NCBI GenBank assembly: GCA_031835245.2
Contig: JAVKOQ020000064.1
Coordinates: forward strand, 62,001 to 126,000
Direction: 5' to 3'
From: Balamuthia mandrillaris
Lineage: Eukaryota
DNA length: 64,000 bases
Part shown: piece after piece, positions 42,416-61,554 of the stretch
Position numbering within the stretch: the first letter of the stretch is position 1
Layout of the letters: each line of letters opens with the position of its first letter
Position numbers and translations under genes: made by a program
The notes under the pieces: model-generated
The model's input: the letters and a program-made list of their open reading frames with translations, nothing else
Database searches by the model: none
What the model was told of the DNA's origin: nothing

Positions 42416-44122
42416 CTAGTTGGTGGCAAGGGAAGAGGCAGGAAGGGGCCGGTGGAGGCAGCTCTGGCTGCAACACAACAGCTCCCACCGCACTCCTCTT
42501 TCCTCGTCCCAATGCCTCCTCACCATCCTTTCCCTTCCTTCTCCTGCATTCATCTCCTCCTCTTCCTCTTCCTCCGCTTCTGCCTCCAAAAACAGGTGTT
42601 CACAAACATCACATCTCCTCTGCAACCTTTCCAGTCGTTCCTTCACCTCTTCCGGCAGCACCACCTCCATGATGACCTCCTCCACACTCCCTTCTCCTTC
42701 TTTTTCTATCCCTTCTTCTTTTGTTCCTTGCTGCTGGCTCGTGCTCCTTGCCATCGGCAGAGAAGAAGAAGAAGAAGAAGAAGAAGAAGAAGAAGAAGAA
42801 GAAGAACAAGAAGAAGAAGAAAGCCAAGCGAAGGACGAGGCTGGAACGGAGCTCAACAGGCCGGGCGGCAAAAGCTGGTTCCTCAGCACCGCCTCTCCGC
42901 TCAAATGCCACAGACTCTTCGCTGTGGCCTGGTTGCTCCTCATCGGCGATGATCGATTGGGTTTTGCTCTGGCCTTCTTCTGTTCCTCCTCTTCCATGTG
43001 CTTGGGACGTGGTTCTTGCTGGTGCTGAAAGGGTTGAAGGAAGAGCGCGCGCAAGGACGGAAGAAGGCGAACCATGGAGCAAGGCAATGCCGCCAAGGGG
43101 TTACCATCCAGTTCGAAACACCTGAGGGCGCTCAGCCGGCCGAACTCTCTCGGCAAGGAGGTCAGCTGGTTGTCGTTGAGGTGGCAGGCCCGTAGAGCGG
43201 AGAGCTGGGCAAACTCTCTCGGCAAGGAGACCAGCTTGTTGTTGGAGAGGTTGCAGTACCAAAGAGCGGAGAGCTGGCCAAACTCGCGTGGCAAGGCGGT
43301 CAGCTTGTTGCAGGAGAGGTCGCAGTCGGTAATACCAGCGAGCTGGCCAAGCTCTCTCGGCAAGGCGGTCAGCTCGTTGTTGGAGAGGTGGCACTCCGTG
43401 AGGGCGGTGAGCCGGCCAAACTCCCTCGGCAAGGCGGTCAGCTTGTTGTTGTTGAGCTCACAGTACCTGAGAGCGGAGAGCTGGCCAAACTCTTTCGGCA
43501 AGGAGGTCAGTCTGTTGTTGGAGAGGTTGCACTCCGTGAGAGCGGTGAGCTGGCCAAACTCTCTCGGCAGGAATGAAAGCTTGTTGTTGGAGAGGTTGCA
43601 CTCTGTGAGAGCGGAGAGCCGGCCAAACTCCCTTGGCAAGGCGCTCAGTTGGTTGTTGGAGAGGTTGCAGTGGGTGAGAGCGGTCAGCCGACCAAACTCG
43701 CTTGGCAAGGCGGTCAGCTCGTTGTTGTGGAGGTAGCAAGACCGTAGAGCGGCGAGCTGACCAAACTCCCTCGGTAAGGCGGTCAGCTCGTTGTTGCTGA
43801 GGTAGTAGAGGGTGAGAGCGGTGAGCTGACCACACTCCCTCGGCAAGGAGGTCAGTTCATTGTTGTGCAGGTCGCATTGCGTGAGAGCGGTGAGCTGACC
43901 GAACTCCCTCGGCAAGGAGGTCAGCTGGTTGTTGTGAAGGTAGCAAGACCTTAGAGCGGCCAGCCGGCCAAACTCCCTCGGCAAAGCGGTCAACCCTTTG
44001 AAGGAGAGGTCGCAGGCGGTGGAGTGCGCAAAGGGTCGGAGCAGGGAGGGAAGCGCTTCGCTATTTTCCCCCTCTTCATTCTTGTCCAGGGCCGGTGCTT
44101 CTCGTCCATGACTGTCCTCCAT
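42416..44122 (-). CDS. LRR protein paralog A (14 LRRs) with C-terminal BC-box-like and Cys-rich Zn motif (LRRC58/LRRC28-like layout)
   Basis: 23-aa repeats LxxCxLxxNxLxxLPREFGxLxA. Tail KSLWHLSGEAVLRN...LPEEVKERL..RCDVCEHLF...LCCSQSC. Intronless. Confidence 0.88.
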   Translation of the reverse strand: MEDSHGREAPALDKNEEGENSEALPSLLRPFAHSTACDLSFKGLTALPREFGRLAALRSCYLHNNQLTSLPREFGQLTALTQCDLHNNELTSLPRECGQLTALTLYYLSNNELTALPREFGQLAALRSCYLHNNELTALPSEFGRLTALTHCNLSNNQLSALPREFGRLSALTECNLSNNKLSFLPREFGQLTALTECNLSNNRLTSLPKEFGQLSALRYCELNNNKLTALPREFGRLTALTECHLSNNELTALPRELGQLAGITDCDLSCNKLTALPREFGQLSALWYCNLSNNKLVSLPREFAQLSALRACHLNDNQLTSLPREFGRLSALRCFELDGNPLAALPCSMVRLLPSLRALFLQPFQHQQEPRPKHMEEEEQKKARAKPNRSSPMRSNQATAKSLWHLSGEAVLRNQLLPPGLLSSVPASSFAWLSSSSCSSSSSSSSSSSSSSSLPMARSTSQQQGTKEEGIEKEGEGSVEEVIMEVVLPEEVKERLERLQRRCDVCEHLFLEAEAEEEEEEEMNAGEGRERMVRRHWDEERGVRWELLCCSQSCLHRPLPASSLATN

Positions 44123-44284
44123 TGCTCCTTCTGGGTACCAAATGTTTCTGGTGTGCACGTTCACCATTATTTGGTGTTATAATAATTAATATAAGACTTA
44201 TATTAATGAATTGAAAACTCTATCGTGCACCGGGTGCCTTCTTGTTCCTCGGTTCGTTCGTTCCACGCTTTCTTCCTCGCTCGC

Positions 44285-44587: not shown

Positions 44588-45886
44588 CTACTTGGTGGCA
44601 AGGGAACAGGCGGGAAGAGGCTGGCGGAAGCAGCTCTGGCTGCAACACAATAACTCCCACCACACTCCTCTGTTCTTATCCCAATACCTTCTCACCACTC
44701 CCCTTGCTTCCCCTCCGCCTTCTTTCTCTTCCTCCGCCGCTTCTGCCTCCAAAAACAGGTGTTCACAAACATCACATCTTCTTTGTAACCTTTCCAGTCG
44801 TTCCTTCACTTCTTCTGGCAGCACCACCGCCATGATGACCTCCTCTCCTTCTTCTTTCCGTTTTTCTTTTGTTCCTGCGTGCTGGTTTGTGCTCCTCTCT
44901 GTCTGCAGAGAAGAAGAAAGCCAAGTGAATGGCGGGCTTGGAACAGTGCTCAACAGGCCTGTGGGCAAAAGCTGGTTTCTCAACACTGCCTCTCCGCTCA
45001 AGTGCCACAAACTTTTCACTGTTGCCCGGTTGTTCCTCATCAGCGGAGCTTGGTCAGGCTTCTTCTTCTCCTCTTGCTTTTCAACATTCTCTTCACCATC
45101 TTCTGTGTGTTTGGGAGGTGCTTCTTGCTGGTGAAAGGGCTGAGGCGGGCGTGTGCGCAAGTACCGAAGAAGGCAAGCCATGGAGCAAGGCAGTGCTGCC
45201 AAGGGGTTACTATCCAGGGTGAAATTCTTGAGAGCGGACAGCCGACCAAACTCCCTCGGCAAGCATGAGAGTTTGTTGTGGTTGAGGTAGCACTCAGTGA
45301 GAGCAGAGAGCTGGCCGAACTCCCTCGGCAAGGCGCTCAGCTTGTTGTTGTGGAGGAAGCAGCATCTGAGCCTGCGGAGCTGGCCAAACTCCCTCGGCAA
45401 GGAGCTCAGCTTGTTGCCAGAGAGGTCGCAGATGGTGAGAGCGGTGAGTCGGCCAAACTCCCTCGGCAAGGACCTCAGCTTGTTGCCGGAGAGGTTGCAA
45501 GAGGTGAGAGCACGGAGCTGGCCAAACTCCCTCGGCAAGGAGGTCAGCCTGTTGTCGGAGAGGTCGCAATCAGTGAGAGCGGTGAGCTGGCCAAACTCTC
45601 TCGGCAAGGTGGTCAGCTCGTTGTTGTGGAGGTCGAAGTAAGTGAGGGCGGCGAGCCGACCAAACTCCCTCGGCAGGGCGGTCAGCTCGTTGTCGTTGAG
45701 CTCGCAGCAGGCAAGAGCGGTGAGCCGGCCAACGGCGCTGGGCAAGGAGGTCAAGCCATTGCAGGAGAGGTTGCAGGCGGTGGAGTGCGCAAAGGGTTGG
45801 AGCAGGGAGGGAAGTGCCGCTGCGTTGCTTGCACTGCTCTCTCCCTCCTCCTCCTCCTTGTCTCTCGGCGTGCTTTGTCCCTGCAT
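44588..45886 (-). CDS. LRR protein paralog B (9 LRRs), same N-cap and BC-box/Zn tail
   Basis: N-cap ALPSLLQPFAHSTACNLS, LPREFGQL repeats, SLWHLSGEAVLRN, RCDVCEHLF, LCCSQSC. Confidence 0.88.
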   Translation of the reverse strand: MQGQSTPRDKEEEEGESSASNAAALPSLLQPFAHSTACNLSCNGLTSLPSAVGRLTALACCELNDNELTALPREFGRLAALTYFDLHNNELTTLPREFGQLTALTDCDLSDNRLTSLPREFGQLRALTSCNLSGNKLRSLPREFGRLTALTICDLSGNKLSSLPREFGQLRRLRCCFLHNNKLSALPREFGQLSALTECYLNHNKLSCLPREFGRLSALKNFTLDSNPLAALPCSMACLLRYLRTRPPQPFHQQEAPPKHTEDGEENVEKQEEKKKPDQAPLMRNNRATVKSLWHLSGEAVLRNQLLPTGLLSTVPSPPFTWLSSSLQTERSTNQHAGTKEKRKEEGEEVIMAVVLPEEVKERLERLQRRCDVCEHLFLEAEAAEEEKEGGGEARGVVRRYWDKNRGVWWELLCCSQSCFRQPLPACSLATK

Positions 45887-46206
45887 TACCCAGCCGGCTT
45901 TCTTTTATGATTGTGGATTGGTGCGGTGGGAAACGAAGATCATATCCATAACAGATCAATGTCGACATGGTGAAATTCGACGAAATTATAGAAGGAAGGG
46001 AAACTTGGAAGAAAACTCAGCAAAAATTGAGGGATTCGAAGAACGAAGAAAACAAGAAAAAAGATTTATTTTTTTTTGCTGTCGGTTAAAAAAAAAAACG
46101 GCTTTTTGATTCAGCGAGGAAGGAAGGCCCCCTTAGAAAAGAAGTATTCCTGCTTGCTACATCAACACACACACACACTGTGAAAAAAAAAACTTTTACC
46201 AAAACG

Positions 46207-48339: not shown

Positions 48340-48645
48340 CGCTCAGCACCACTTGTTGGTCTTGGAACAGTGCTCAACAGGCCGGGTGGTAAAAGCTGGT
48401 TCCTCAGCACCGCCTCCTCGCTCAAGTGCCACAGGCTCTTCACTTTTTTCCTGGTTCTTCCTCCTGAACGGTGCTTGCTTGTCACTCTGTGTTCTTTTCC
48501 TCCTCGTCGTCGTCATGCTCTTCAAGCCATTGCAGGGAGGTTGCAGACGGTGGCGTGTGCAAAGGGTTGGAGCAAGGAGGGAAGCGCTTCGCTTTTCTCT
48601 CTCCCTCGCCCTATTCCTTCTCCACCTCTTTCTTGTCCGTCCCAA
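48340..48645 (-). pseudogene. Relic of the LRR/BC-box family: N-cap joined almost directly to the BC-box, LRR array lost
   Basis: SEALPSLLQPFAHATVCNL, then a frameshift (CTCCCTGCAATGGCTTG versus paralog B CTCTCCTGCAATGGCTTG), then about 70 nt later VKSLWHLSEEAVLRNQLLPPGLLSTVP. Confidence 0.85.
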
Positions 48646-49386
48646 CCTCCTCTATCAAGAGAGCCAAACCCGCTATTAAAGTGTTGTGCTTCGTTTGTTG
48701 AATTGAACAAACAGCCTGCGATACCTTACACTGAAAGATTTAACAAAAGCATACAGCTAAGCAAGGTTGTTGTGGTTGCTGCCTTCCTTGTCTTGTTGTT
48801 CTTTCCTTACTTCCCTTCTGCGTTACCTATAATTGCCCTCTAAAGTTGTTTTACGTAAAACTCTCAGCAGCACCAGTGCTTGGGCTTGTTGGGTTATCAT
48901 GTCCTGTTTTTTCTCCAGCCATTGTTGATGCTGCTCATCGAGAGTCTTGAGCTGTTGTTGGTGCGTCTTGTGGAGTTGGGGGGTGGTACAGCCTGATGTT
49001 CTCCAGCAGGGCCTGAGTGCATAGGACGTCGTGTTGCCTTTGAAGTGTCAAAAACAATAAAGTGCCTCCTAACTCGTGCCGCTTCTGCCCGCTCGGACTG
49101 ACACTTGTTGTCTTTCGTTGCATCATTTCGAGAACTCCTCGGGGAACAGAAGACGCACAGAAAAACGAGATGGCGCTGCTAACGGGTGGTCGAGTGTTCA
49201 CTTTTGAGTGTTGCTGAGGAAAGTTAGCATACTTGCACAAAAGAGAATTCTTCTTAAGTACCTTTCGCTTCTCTCCTCTTGTCTCTGTCTCTCTTTTCTT
49301 ATTCTTTGACACATGTTGTTTGTAATGCATAAACTCATTTCTTGAAACTTCATAACTAGCACAAAAATGAACACATAACAAACATT

Positions 49387-50617
49387 TCATTCCTCCTTGG
49401 CCCATTCCTTGTGCAACCTTTGCACGATTTCCTCGGGCTCAAGTGCTATGAGCATGTTGCCTCTCTTCTGCCATACCATCTTCTTTGCCCAAGTGGTTTG
49501 TCCAAGGCGAACGCCAGGCCTGACCTCCACTTGAAGAAGATAGTACTTGTCGGTTGATGAAGGGGATATAAGCTCATGCCAGATATCGATAACCTCTGAG
49601 TCATCCGAAATCGGTGGCCAAAGGAATCGCAGTTCGCGTTGAATGATCAGTTTGACCTTGTCCAGTTCGTTGGAAGAAAGCTTGATCCCGTGGATTGTTT
49701 TGGTATCATGGATTCCGTACCAGATGCTTCCTCCTTTGCCTGTATTCAAAAATCCACATACATAGGCAGCCAAGCCCTTCATACTTGCTTTTTCAACAAG
49801 CACGTTGCTTACATGCTCGCAATTCCATTCTTGATCTGGTTTCACTCCTCCTTTAAATTCATTTCTATCGTCTTCGTCCTCCTCCATCTCCATTCCACGC
49901 AGGAACACACGTTGTGAAAGGCAACTTTTCAACGCGTTCCATGCATCCAGATCCTTTGTTGCCAAGCGCTCCAACATCGCTTTGGCGGCTTCATGCTTTG
50001 CGATGGCAATACTAGAGAAAGGTCCTTTTTCCTCCTTGAGGACACAGCCATTCTCGAGCTTCAAATGGCAGTAATAAACATAGCCCACCTGTTGGGTTTC
50101 AACTCGTTGGCTACCACTTTCAAAGTCATTCGCTTTGAAATTGATAGCACGTTCGTTAAAAAATAATAAAATATGCAAAACAAAAGTATAAAAATGAATA
50201 AAGCATACTTAGTTTTTTCTTTGCCAAGTAGTTGTGCAGGGCAGCAAAGGGGCTGGGTTGTAACGGCTGACTTGTCCTGGATGCCTTTGGAAGGTCTGCA
50301 AAGTCTTTCAGCCAAACGGATGCGAGGTGGGCTTGTACAACTTTCTTCTTGGTGAACCATTTGGCTGGCTCGACTTCACAGCGTTGCCCTTTGAATTCTA
50401 ACGAGCCGTAAAACAATTTCGTTTGTTTGTCTTGCTGAATAGTCCAACCAGGCAACTGATCTTTGGATGCTAGCTCGTTCAACAAACACAACGGTGTGGA
50501 GTCATAGGTGTGCTCTGACGCGCGCTCGTCCTCATCTATTGCATCGTTACCAACTGCTTCCGCTCTTCCATCTTCTTTGTGCTCTTGTTCCTTTTCTTTG
50601 TCTTTTCCGCCTTCCAT
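49387..50617 (-). CDS. Two dsRNA-binding-like domains fused to a Schlafen/AlbA_2 nuclease domain (intron 50133-50208)
   Basis: dsRBD-like segments TPLCLLNEL...FYGSLEF..FTKKKVVQAHLASVWL and SPFAALHNYL...YYCHLKL..FSSIAIAKHEAAKAMLERL. AlbA_2 motifs EDDRNEFK, YVCGFLNTGKGGSIWYGIHD..IHGI, LWPPI, LLQVEV. Confidence 0.8.
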
Positions 50618-50707
50618 GATGCACCGCCGGTCTTGTCAACACAACTGTTCAAACTAAAGGAGAGGTAAGGAAAAAAAAAGGAACAAGCGTGGGAAGAACG
50701 GAAAGAG

Positions 50708-50759
<52 letters not shown>

Positions 50760-50985
50760 CACCGCGTTGTCGAAAAGAAAATGAATGAGCAACAGCTTTA
50801 ATGGAGGAATGATGATTATTTTGGTCAATTGTTGAATGAAGGCGGTGTCCTGGACAATGGCAACGAGAGAGGAGAGGAGAACGCAGAGAGGGGGAGAGAG
50901 AGTGGGGGGTCTCCCAAAAAGGACAACACCTTGCCTTCTCTGCTATTTTAGCTGGTGGCAATTTCTGTCGACTGCTTCGCTTTAG

Positions 50986-58346: not shown

Positions 58347-59327
58347 AACGACAAGAAAGAAAGAAAGAAACGACAAGAAAGAAAGAAAGAAAGAAAGAAA
58401 CGACAAGAAAGAAAGAAAGAAAGAAACGACAAGAAAGAAAGAAAGAAACGACAAGAAAGAAAGAAACGACAAGAAACGACAAGAAAGAAAGAGGAAAAAG
58501 AAGACAAAAATAGAAACAAGAAGAATACATGAACAAAGAACGAAGAATGAGAAAACAAAAGAATAGAGGATGAATGAGGAAAGAAGGATGCAACAAACCA
58601 AAGCGCCCATTCCAGCAACGGCAAACCTGAAGCGAGAGTCATGCCAATGACTAACGGGAGACACATCCCCCGTTTTGGCGTTGATGGTCCCAAAAGTGGT
58701 GTTGGAGTCACCTGGCGAGGAGGAATCCACCATCAACGCATAGAGCGTTCTGCTCTTCTGGCCAAACACCTTTTTTGAAGGTGTGAACAGAAGAGAGAGT
58801 TGAGCAACACAACGTTTAAACAGCACCAGAGGAGAAAGATAAAGGAGGCTGTCCTATGTACCATCGAAATGGGGAAGTAAGGAGCCTTGTAGGTATTTAT
58901 CTTCAAACTCCTGATGTCTATGGTTCCCACAAAGTACGTCTCGTCCGATGTGCCTTGCTTGGTGAACGGCGATACGTAAAGCCCGTTCAGAAAGTCGAGG
59001 GCGGAGGGAGTGCCGCCCATTCCTTGGGCGATGGGCAGCAACCCGGATGGAAGCTCCAGGAGGTCGGTGTAGCCGGAAGCGGTAGAAAAGAGAGACGAGG
59101 AGGAACCAGGAAGAACAGAACCGAAGAAAATGCCGGACCCCTCTTTGGAAGGAGCTGTGTTTGTGGAGTGAAAAAAGAAGAATGAGTTAGCGAAAGAAGG
59201 AGAAGATGAGGAGAAGCAGAGAAGAGAAAAGAGAACGAGAAGACGAGAAGAAGGAGAAAAGCAGAGAAGCAGAGATCAGAATAGAAGCAGAAAAGAGAGA
59301 GGAGAGAGAGAGAGAGAGAGAGAGCGA

Positions 59328-59370
<43 letters not shown>

Positions 59371-59946
59371 GAAGCAAGCAAAGAGAAAGAGAAGCAGCAA
59401 ACGAGAAGGGTAGAGCGAGATGAGAGAAGGAAAAAAAAAAGACAAACCATCTCTAAGGGCAGTGCCCAAAAGAAAGACTTTGCCGCTGCTTCGGTCAAAC
59501 TCAACGCTAAAGATGTAAGAGTGAGGAATGGGGTCCACCGACACGATCTTTGCCTGGGAAGTAGAGGTAGGCAACGCGATTCCGACCAACGACATCGTTT
59601 CGGAGGGGATGTTGTTGTTTCGTTTTTGTTGGTGAGACGAAGTCTGATTGATGAGACAGACGTAAAGGATGCGCTTGGCGGGGTCCAAGGTGGAGGGCAA
59701 GGAGAGCAGCTGGGAGCTGTCCGACAGGGAGAGGAGCTGCTTGCCGAAAGCCCCGGTGCGCTCGTCCAGCACGGAGAGCGCGAAGGGAGGGGAGAGCATG
59801 CCGGTGGTGGCCAGCAGCACGTTCGCCTCCCCGCCTCTGCCGCCCTCTCCCGACTCAAAATTGTCGCTGAGCGGCCTATACCCATTCTTTGCCCGAGCGG
59901 CAACGCAGAGCAGAAGAACGCTGAGAAAAAAGAAAGAGGTTCTCAT
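57917..59946 (-). CDS. Secreted hypothetical beta-rich (propeller-like) protein, about 4 exons
   Basis: Signal peptide MRTSFFFLSVLLLCVAARA. Blade-like units STLDPAKRILYV, SALDFLNGLYV, GTINAKTGDV, VTVDISTGKI. Last exon ends LVFVPSF*. Confidence 0.65.
58090..58490 (-). repeat. (GAAA)n microsatellite with CGACAA interruptions (the FES1-intron composite motif on the opposite strand)
   Basis: Directly visible; lies in an intron of the minus-strand gene. Confidence 0.92.
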
Positions 59947-60210
59947 GGTTTGTTTTGTTTCTTGAGTGCTATAACGAAAAAGAAAGAAACGACAAGAAAG
60001 AAAAGAGCGAAGGGAAAGAAAGAAAAGAAAAGAGCTTTGGGAATGGATGGAAAAAGAAAAAGAAGCGGAATTGTGCCGTGTCCGATTTCCCTTTTTTTGG
60101 AGGGAATGCGGCGATCGGTTCATTCATTACGAACCGACCAATGGAAAATCAAATCGAATGATCTGGATCTATTACCGACCAATCCGCAATCAGAAATCAG
60201 CGGAAAGGGA

Positions 60211-61554
60211 ATGGAAGAGGGCCTGCAGACAGCAGACATGGGAGAGAAGGAGGAAAGCTATAGCGAAGCGCTTCCCGCCCTGCTCCAACCCTTTGCGCAC
60301 TCCACCGCCTGCAACCTCTCCTTCAAACGCTTGACCGCCCTGCCGAGGGAGTTTGGCCGGCTTACCGCCCTCACCCGCTGCGACCTCTCCACCAACCTGC
60401 TGAGCTCCTTGCCGAGGGAGTTTGGCCAGCTCCGCGCTCTCATCCACTGCTATCTCTCCTTCAACGAGCTGAGCGCCTTGCCGAGGGAGTTTGGCCAGCT
60501 CGCCTCTCTCACCCGCTGCAACCTCTCCAACAACGAGCTGAGGTCCTTGCCGCGGGAGTTTGGCCAGCTCTCCGCTCTCACTGAGTGCAACCTCTCCCAC
60601 AACAGGCTGACCTCCTTGCCGAGGGAGTTTGGCCAGCTCTCCGTTCTCGCTTTGCTCGACCTCTCCTGCAACAAGCTGAGGTCCTTGCCGAGGGAGTTTG
60701 GCCAGCTCTCCGCTCTCACTGAGTGCAACCTCTCCTCCAACGAGCTGACCTGCTTGCCGAGGGAGTTTGGGGGGCTGAACGCCCTCAAGCGTTGCATCCT
60801 GTATGGTAACACCTTGGCAGCACTGCCTTGCTCCATGGTTTGCCTTTTTCCATCCTTGCGCACGCTCTTCCTTCAACCCTTTCAGCTGCAAGAACCGCTT
60901 TTCCAACAAACGGAAGAGTGTGAGGCAGAAGCTGAGCAAGAGCACAAGGAGGAGGCGGAGAAGCAGAAGAAGCAGAAAAGAGTGAAACCCAAGCAGTCAC
61001 CTCCCATGAGGAACAACCGGGCAACAGCCAAAAGTTTGTGGCACTTGAGCGGAGAGGCGGTGCTTAGGAACAAGCTTTTGCCACCCGGCCTCCTGGCCTC
61101 TGTTCCAGACCCGCCCTTCACTTGGCTTTCTTCTTGTTCTTCTTCTTCTTGTTCTTCTTCTTCTTGTTCTTGTTCTTCTTCTTCTTGTTCTTCTTCTTCT
61201 TCTTCTTCTTCTTCTTCTTCTTCTTCTTGTTCTTCTTCTTGTTCTTCTCAAGGAACAAAAGAAGAAGGGAAAGCAGAAGAAGGAGAAGGGAGCGTGGGGG
61301 AGGTCATCATGGCGGTGGTGCTGCCGGAAGAAGTGAAGGAACGACTGGAAAGGTTGCAAAGAAGATGTGATGTTTGTGAACACCTGTTTTTGGAGGCAGA
61401 AGCGACGGAGGAAGAGAAAGAAGGAGGAGGGGAAGCAAGGGAAGTGGTGAGAAGATATTGGGACGAGGAAAGAGAAGTGTGGTGGGAGCTGTTGTGTTGC
61501 AGCCAGAGCTGCCTCCTCCAGCCCCTTCCTGCCTCTTCCCTTGCCACCAAGTAA
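60211..61554 (+). CDS. LRR protein paralog C (8 LRRs), same N-cap and BC-box/Zn tail, inverted orientation
   Basis: SEALPALLQPFAHSTACNLS, LPREFGQL repeats, SLWHLSGEAVLRN, LPEEVKERL, RCDVCEHLF, LCCSQSC. Confidence 0.88.
   Translation: MEEGLQTADMGEKEESYSEALPALLQPFAHSTACNLSFKRLTALPREFGRLTALTRCDLSTNLLSSLPREFGQLRALIHCYLSFNELSALPREFGQLASLTRCNLSNNELRSLPREFGQLSALTECNLSHNRLTSLPREFGQLSVLALLDLSCNKLRSLPREFGQLSALTECNLSSNELTCLPREFGGLNALKRCILYGNTLAALPCSMVCLFPSLRTLFLQPFQLQEPLFQQTEECEAEAEQEHKEEAEKQKKQKRVKPKQSPPMRNNRATAKSLWHLSGEAVLRNKLLPPGLLASVPDPPFTWLSSCSSSSCSSSSCSCSSSSCSSSSSSSSSSSSSCSSSCSSQGTKEEGKAEEGEGSVGEVIMAVVLPEEVKERLERLQRRCDVCEHLFLEAEATEEEKEGGGEAREVVRRYWDEEREVWWELLCCSQSCLLQPLPASSLATK

Follow-up and report, generated by a model that had tools for sequence, protein, structure and literature searches.

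Catalysis in SLFN11 and in bacterial Schlafens relies on the Ex4(E/D)xK motif (PMC13056530; PMC13462974). In the prokaryotic Schlafens pSlfn1-55, which include RorSlfn5 and EcoSlfn7, and in Cash, one Ex4(E/D)xK lobe is fused to a variable partner (PMC13056530; PMC13462974), and either a phage protein or cA4 serves as the trigger where this is known. None of the 55 prokaryotic Schlafen architectures tabulated in supplement file 21 of PMC13056530 carries the term dsRBD. Outside the SLFN cluster, eukaryotes have single-lobe Schlafen-like domains in SLFNL1, which is uncharacterised, and in PUCH of C. elegans (TOFU-1/TOFU-2/SLFL-3/4), a heterotrimer for piRNA processing, with no dsRBDs reported for either in the sections of these sources that were covered (PMC10567574; 10.1101/2024.01.12.575368). 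CXorf38 combines a predicted RNase of the HEPN fold, which is unrelated to Schlafen, with a dsRBD and was proposed to target dsRNA as part of defence (PMC3710099). In canonical dsRBDs the KKxAK motif at the start of helix 2 is the RNA-binding motif (10.1101/466763); dsRBDs without it, e.g. that of Drosha, do not bind RNA, and some dsRBDs serve protein contacts only (PMC5549741).

SLFN11, SLFN12, SLFN13 and SLFN14 have a two-lobe RNase core with a linker/helicase part. SAMD9 and SAMD9L belong to the metazoan STAND proteins and contain an AlbA_2 tRNase; SAMD9 is about 1,500 aa long, carries SAM, SIR2, NTPase, TPR and OB domains and is reported as activated by double-stranded nucleic acids. PKR (EIF2AK2) has two dsRBDs followed by a kinase as effector, and OAS-RNase L works through a second messenger. 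To our knowledge, little is known about the sensing of virus RNA in amoebae and other non-model eukaryotes beyond RNAi.

Here, a gene on the minus strand of a 64,000-nucleotide window of Balamuthia mandrillaris DNA (contig JAVKOQ020000064.1, positions 62,001 to 126,000) was analysed. An earlier note, made from the letters of the window, had read it as a fusion of two dsRBDs with a Schlafen nuclease in an amoeba.

Gene structure and transcript evidence

When 50617-50209 and 50132-49387 are joined on the minus strand, the result is one 384-aa ORF identical to the NCBI protein QOT17_008386 (P0001) of Balamuthia mandrillaris (Table 1). The proposal that a 76-nt intron at 50133-50208 is removed to give one protein was confirmed by two contigs from runs whose RNA nature is a guess only: a 1,268-nt contig of run X1, possibly tied to the assembly's own sample, which runs over the gene between 50786 and 49339 and lacks precisely these positions, and a contig of run X2, from a separate study, with the same joint. 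The intron was retained unspliced in a contig of run X4. None of the listed runs holding the gene was recorded as RNA, and in three true RNA runs, with 3-5% of each sampled, 30, 4 and 6 raw reads were found at the gene and 0 crossed the joint. In addition, an intron in the 5' UTR (50654-50762) had been overlooked in the earlier note.

Table 1. Features of the dsRBD-dsRBD-Schlafen gene, with positions in the window
Feature	Position	Strand	Evidence
5' untranslated exon, to the contig's limit	50763..50786	-	X1 contig piece 50767-50786; boundary at 50763 inferred from GT donor
5' UTR intron, GT..AG, with (TC)n repeat	50654..50762	-	Gap between X1 contig pieces; ends inferred from sequence; joint absent from splice-joint table
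Coding exon 1, residues 1-136: acidic N-tail, dsRBD1, linker, helix 1 of dsRBD2	50209..50617	-	ORF, database protein, X1 contig
dsRBD1, residues 38-104, K91-K92 of KKxAK kept (motif 50321-50350)	50306..50506	-	Family profiles, motif columns; likely the RNA-binding domain
dsRBD2, residues 121-196, intron-split; I178-A179 in place of KK (49984-50013)	49954..50257	-	Family profiles, motif columns; likely structural
76-nt phase-1 GT..AG intron within dsRBD2	50133..50208	-	Absent from X1 and X2 contigs, still present in X4
Coding exon 2, residues 137-384 and stop	49387..50132	-	ORF, database protein, X1 contig
Single-lobe Schlafen/AlbA_2 RNase domain, residues about 212-384	49390..49908	-	Pfam PF04326 above cut-off; family profile matches SLFN11 at E 1.5e-9
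Catalytic motif E223-x4-E228-x-K230	49852..49875	-	Invariant in 18/18 aligned members; motif as in PMC13056530
G276-x-x-D279, third acidic active-site position	49705..49716	-	Family conservation; aligned to G-V-D-D of SLFN11 by family profile
3' untranslated region, to the contig's limit	49339..49386	-	X1 contig end at 49339

The Schlafen/AlbA_2 nuclease domain

The AlbA_2/Schlafen core with EDDRNEFK described before passed the Pfam check that had been suggested for it: PF04326 (SLFN_AlbA_2) matched P0001 with an E-value of 1.3e-9 and 39.1 bits at a curated cut-off of 25.3. E223-x4-E228-F-K230 and G276-x-x-D279 aligned in register to a profile built from 30 bacterial AlbA_2 domains, and the positions of G276 and D279 held G and D in all 16 family rows that reach the site (P0002, a second Balamuthia protein, excluded). 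The identification of the acidic residues with the SLFN catalytic set was upheld by this register of E223, E228, K230 and D279 and by their conservation in the family. One AlbA_2 lobe was present in P0001 and Pfam showed neither a helicase nor an NTPase. Overall, the catalytic set of the Balamuthia protein looks intact and the protein is predicted to cleave RNA.

A scattered eukaryotic family

Word-indexed searches returned just P0001 and P0002 and no match among longer proteins. The 'Balamuthia only' reading of these searches was overturned by an unfiltered HMMER search with a P0001/P0002 profile against 1.84 billion representatives, which produced 90 matches, namely P0001 and 89 others. AlbA_2 was found at E ≤0.05 in 86 of the 89 and a dsRBD-clan Pfam match in 6. 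Two relatives exceeded the Pfam cut-offs at the same positions as the Balamuthia domains, P0006 for Dicer_dimer and AlbA_2 and P0084 for these two and dsrm. The records of 30 of the 89 matches were looked up. An alignment of 18 rows (A2) was made from P0001, P0002 and 16 of the 89, chosen by eye for long N-termini and matches that extend into the N-terminal half. P0002 apart, its members were 19-27% identical to P0001, and five further short search matches covered domain 2. Named members among the 16 were BV898_06010 of the tardigrade Hypsibius exemplaris, Cvel_3006 of the alveolate Chromera velia and KAI8588143.1 of the chytrid Geranomyces variabilis; the UniRef label of the Hypsibius and Chromera proteins was AlbA-2 domain protein only.

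These results support the Balamuthia protein as one member of a scattered eukaryotic dsRBD-dsRBD-Schlafen family, as judged by sequence comparison. The fusion that had been attributed to an amoeba is thus a real architecture but a wider one, with tardigrade, chytrid and alga members brought in by the unfiltered search. In an AlbA_2 tree built by a quick method from 122 of 126 rows (P0039, P0057, L008 and L015 were dropped as too short), the search matches were separate from 28 Bacillota domains, and the dsRBD-bearing rows lay in an open fork, so that a single origin of these rows is neither supported nor opposed. Full-text searches, including those for Amoebozoa and protists, listed no paper on a dsRBD-Schlafen/AlbA_2 architecture, in agreement with the earlier note, which knew of no characterised protein of this kind; existing reviews might mention it. 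In the text parts covered and four supplements of the SAMD9 evolution paper (PMC12680541) neither an amoeba nor dsrm was named. The eukaryotic family is apparently undescribed so far.

Searches of other collections gave few leads. P0001 had no match in NCBIfam or PADLOC and chance-level rows only in PHROGs. Whole P0001 had no match in plasmids and phages, where a further search gave chance rows only, and P0001 had none in viral and metagenome contigs. Scans of viral contigs with P0043, P0030, P0051 and P0040 and of metagenomes with P0065 also returned none. Locus L001 was rejected, since it proved to be an octapeptide shared by chance, in front of a gene that is unrelated. For P0065, a dsRBD-Schlafen member, one confirmed relative was counted in the viral contig collection, with its locus not returned, and a viral carrier is a lead.

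Several other AlbA_2 proteins were observed among the matches. An AlbA_2 protein of the amoebozoan Rhizamoeba saxonica (P0007, P0094) was among the top matches, in listed forms that are short and without a dsRBD match. A PemK/MazF-like RNase fused to AlbA_2, that is, a two-headed RNase, was present in P0036, P0063, P0069, P0070 and P0079, and P0003 (2,337 aa) had 22 tandem AlbA_2 matches, which may be real or an assembly artefact. Other AlbA_2 fusions, in P0045, P0061, P0075, P0015, P0089 and P0090, were with Tudor and Armadillo, NACHT, TPR, weak SEFIR and weak RRM.

The two N-terminal domains

The claim of two N-terminal dsRBDs stood through the profiles of the family and was weak from the Balamuthia protein alone. 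The Pfam check of PF00035 that had been suggested for P0001 came out below the cut-off, with dsrm on residues 155-193 in domain 2 at E 0.23 and 12.5 bits against 23 and no Pfam dsRBD match on domain 1. Single-sequence PDB searches with P0001 gave SLFN12 only (E 0.18), and exon 1 was without a match. Neither Balamuthia domain was picked up directly with a profile built from 30 bacterial RNase III dsRBDs, and pairwise comparison of the two domains of P0001 with each other showed no significant similarity. The ESM Atlas listed dsRBD-clan clusters for residues 36-200, with a best value of 0.83, as a graded lead only.

AlphaFold models had low confidence, with a pLDDT of 31 for P0001 (two-sequence input) and 47 for domain 1 alone, and are neutral on the fold. 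These models showed a dsRBD secondary-structure pattern in residues 41-104, and dsRBDs held the top Foldseek ranks, none at E ≤0.001. The first match of the whole model was ADAR2 dsRBM1-2 (E 0.026) and that of the domain 1 model was HYL1 dsRBD1 (E 0.21), neither significant alone; for domain 1, dsRBDs made up 15 of the 46 matches listed and 11 of the 11 with at least 20% identity. VIA-align on the same low-confidence models listed no dsRBD and nothing at Z ≥5, which is likewise neutral on the fold. A homodimer prediction scored 0.30 against a mark of 0.32, with controls that were not folded, and is neutral on a dimer.

A search of the PDB with the profile of alignment A2 returned 60 sequences at E ≤1, and 59 were dsRBD or Schlafen/SAMD9 proteins. 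The dsRBD matches included TARBP2 (3.5e-10 for three domains summed, best single domain E 0.018), Loquacious (1.1e-8), R2D2 (2.7e-5) and DCL4, while the nuclease matches were SLFN11 (1.5e-9), SLFN14 (7.9e-8), SLFN12 and SLFN13. Staufen1 (E 0.0012) and PKR (0.018) were matched over the two N-terminal domains together. Profiles made without the Balamuthia rows gave P0001 11.5 bits for domain 1 (best of 500 shuffles 6.7) and 23.6 for domain 2 (5.6), and hhalign of such profiles with bacterial RNase III dsRBDs gave 81% and 93%, respectively. In leave-one-out tests against 100 shuffles, domain 1 passed in 16 of 18 rows, with small margins in some (e.g. 11.3 against 9.2 for P0001), domain 2 passed in 17 of 18, and both passed in 14 of the 16 rows other than P0001 and P0002. 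The independence of these tests is incomplete, because a Balamuthia query had been used to find the members and A2 was the source of the blocks. Support was weaker for domain 1 than for domain 2 in the family-based tests. Taken through the family, the evidence supports the placement of both domains in the dsRBD superfamily as predicted from sequence.

The two domains differed in their motif columns. With P0002 excluded, dsRBD1 held K in 14 of 16 rows, K in 10, A in 12 and K/R in 9, and the first two motif columns of dsRBD2 held K/R in 4 and 5 of 17 rows. The dsRBD1 motif of P0001 is an imperfect KKVVQ, which keeps K91 and K92 and has Q in the place of the third lysine; a GPxH loop is absent and the domain carries almost no net charge, with 10 K/R and 9 D/E. 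In dsRBD2 the corresponding AKHEAA is without the two leading lysines of KKxAK, which had been missed before. The distance from dsRBD2 to E223 was 36-37 residues in 13 of 18 rows and that from dsRBD1 to dsRBD2 ranged from 34 to 62. Between P0001 and P0002, identity was 84% in dsRBD1 (56/67) and 91% in dsRBD2 and the nuclease, a small difference. dsRBD1, flexibly tethered, is likely the unit that binds RNA. dsRBD2 is likely structural and packs on the nuclease, because its KKxAK lysines are mostly lost and its distance to the nuclease is nearly fixed. The PKR-like pair of RNA-sensing dsRBDs that had been envisaged is therefore to be revised: the canonical basic motif is kept in dsRBD1 only, and dsRBD2 of P0001 has I178 and A179 in its place.

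Copies in Balamuthia and genomic context

P0002 (QOT17_013954) is a second Balamuthia mandrillaris database protein, 86-89% identical to P0001, and is an allele or a paralogue; P0002-type variants were present in run X3 and in reads of run X7. Short contigs of run X4 (49871-49973 and 50047-50085) belonged to a third, more divergent copy outside the two database proteins, with seven changed codons listed, 4 of them synonymous and 3 with residue changes that differ from P0002. At least three related copies were thus present in the Balamuthia runs.

The gene is flanked by a cullin gene and by what we take to be an HspBP1-like gene, for which Pfam gave a weak DUF only; no defence cluster was evident. 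Three paralogous, single-exon-looking LRR genes were observed in the window at 42416-44176 (-), 44588-45904 (-) and about 59191-61551 (+), with arrays of a 23-residue repeat (Pfam LRR) that vary in copy number and a common C-terminal tail bearing cysteines. A remnant at about 48358-48622, beside the Schlafen gene, had the start and the tail of these paralogues without the repeats. The LRR paralogues look like an expanding receptor-like family.

Putative function and rival explanations

The best reading of the protein, which we put at just short of an even chance, is a one-protein defence in which a predicted dsRNA-gated tRNase halts translation. dsRBD1, with its variable linker and the kept KKxAK lysines, would grip long dsRNA, and dsRBD2 would lie against the nuclease, where it would stand in for the N-lobe of mammalian Schlafens in a structural or dimerising role. 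Several copies could then line up on one duplex and bring their nuclease domains together, and the gathered domains would cut tRNA and stop translation in the infected cell. The oligomer and the tRNA-cutting step are borrowed by analogy from Cash, RorSlfn5 and SAMD9. A scattered distribution, fast divergence and multiple copies are typical of defence genes, and the distribution, the divergence and the at least three Balamuthia copies were counted for the defence reading, as was the invariance of E223, E228 and K230 in 18 of 18 rows even though the members are only 19-27% identical. Against it, Schlafen-like domains also process piRNA precursors (PMC10567574). A single basic dsRBD may be too weak a binder for PKR-like sensing, and the imperfect KKVVQ, the near-neutral dsRBD1 and the lack of an evident defence cluster, albeit with LRR paralogues nearby, also weigh against it.

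Fusions of a dsRBD with an RNase usually hold their own substrate, as in RNase III, Dicer and Drosha. The dsRBDs of this family may accordingly be a tether, with an enzyme that cuts the hairpin or duplex RNA it has bound (viral RNA, transposon RNA or a small-RNA precursor) like RNase III or worm PUCH, and the general habit of dsRBD-RNase fusions to hold a substrate and not a trigger speaks for this, with HEPN-dsRBD proteins discussed in PMC3710099. The fixed spacing between dsRBD2 and the nuclease suits substrate positioning, the RNAi cofactors TARBP2, Loquacious and R2D2 led the dsRBD matches of the family profile, and the spliced contigs came from runs without known infection. However, PUCH requires three different Schlafen-like proteins (PMC10567574). 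The dsRBD next to the nuclease is also the one without RNA-binding lysines, and the characterised sensor-fused single-lobe Schlafens in the literature covered all cut tRNA, which leaves a substrate tether rather unlikely.

The dsRBD of DUS2 binds tRNA. An unlikely explanation is that the dsRBDs clamp tRNA or rRNA helices in the same way and replace the Schlafen N-lobe, with another switch (stress, phosphorylation or a partner) and a role in stress control or RNA turnover. With one Schlafen lobe only, something else may hold the tRNA, and DUS2 dsRBDs recurred in 7 of the listed Foldseek matches of dsRBD1 (including the DUS2-type 1whn), and DUS2 also gave the best PDB match of the family profile that covers dsRBD1 only (E 0.035); yet the DUS2 matches were not significant and domains of HYL1, DRB4 and ADAR2 were equal or better. 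Bacterial single-lobe Schlafens hold tRNA through oligomerisation without a clamp domain (PMC13462974), and a housekeeping enzyme is expected to show more even conservation. Finally, the dsRBD-fold domains may bind proteins only, or the Balamuthia copy may have lost RNA binding, so that a protein, for instance a viral one, would switch on the nuclease. Here dsRBD2 resembles the non-binding Drosha type, with its motif lysines absent (PMC5549741), several relatives scored best with Pfam Dicer_dimer, a protein-contact variant of the dsRBD, and RorSlfn5 has a phage protein as its trigger. The KKxAK lysines of dsRBD1, which are kept in very divergent members, are hard to explain without RNA binding and make this explanation improbable.

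Summed over the readings, a putative defence role of some kind is more probable than not. The broader proposal is that amoebae, fungi, alveolates and a tardigrade share an ancient innate-immune module of eukaryotes that is so far undescribed. In it, a single small protein would sense viral dsRNA by a dsRBD and shut off translation through tRNA cleavage by the Schlafen domain, as a compact counterpart of PKR and OAS-RNase L in lineages that lack interferon; this is possible and is put forward tentatively.

Comparison with known systems

The 384-aa protein is small enough for purification and offers clear sites for point mutants at K91/K92 and E223/E228, and safe homologues exist in a tardigrade, a chytrid and an alga that are kept in culture. 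Should the nuclease be gated by dsRNA, the Schlafen sensor-effector logic of bacteria and mammals would extend to a new eukaryotic branch; if the bound duplex itself is cut, the protein would be a new kind of structured-RNA nuclease.

The Balamuthia protein shares with the prokaryotic Schlafens one catalytic lobe fused to a partner, whereas the named members of its family are eukaryotic and their domains stood apart from the 28 Bacillota domains in the quick tree. SLFN11, SLFN12, SLFN13 and SLFN14 have the same catalytic set, and SLFN11 was the best nuclease match of the family profile; the Balamuthia protein differs by its one lobe, the absence of a helicase and the two dsRBDs in front. It also differs by these dsRBDs from SLFNL1 and PUCH, and by its nuclease fold from CXorf38. 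The comparison with PKR is a works-like one only: two dsRBDs precede an effector in both and the family profile aligned to PKR 32-160, but the C-terminal domain is AlbA_2, there is no eIF2-alpha kinase domain and dsRBD2 is without the basic motif. In contrast to OAS-RNase L, the Balamuthia protein has no second messenger. The AlbA_2 tRNase of SAMD9/SAMD9L was matched weakly by the family profile (SAMD9 domain, E 0.0056), and none of the additional SAMD9 domains was found in the Balamuthia protein by Pfam, with dsRBDs in their place. SAMD9 is a functional precedent for the Balamuthia dsRBD-Schlafen protein.
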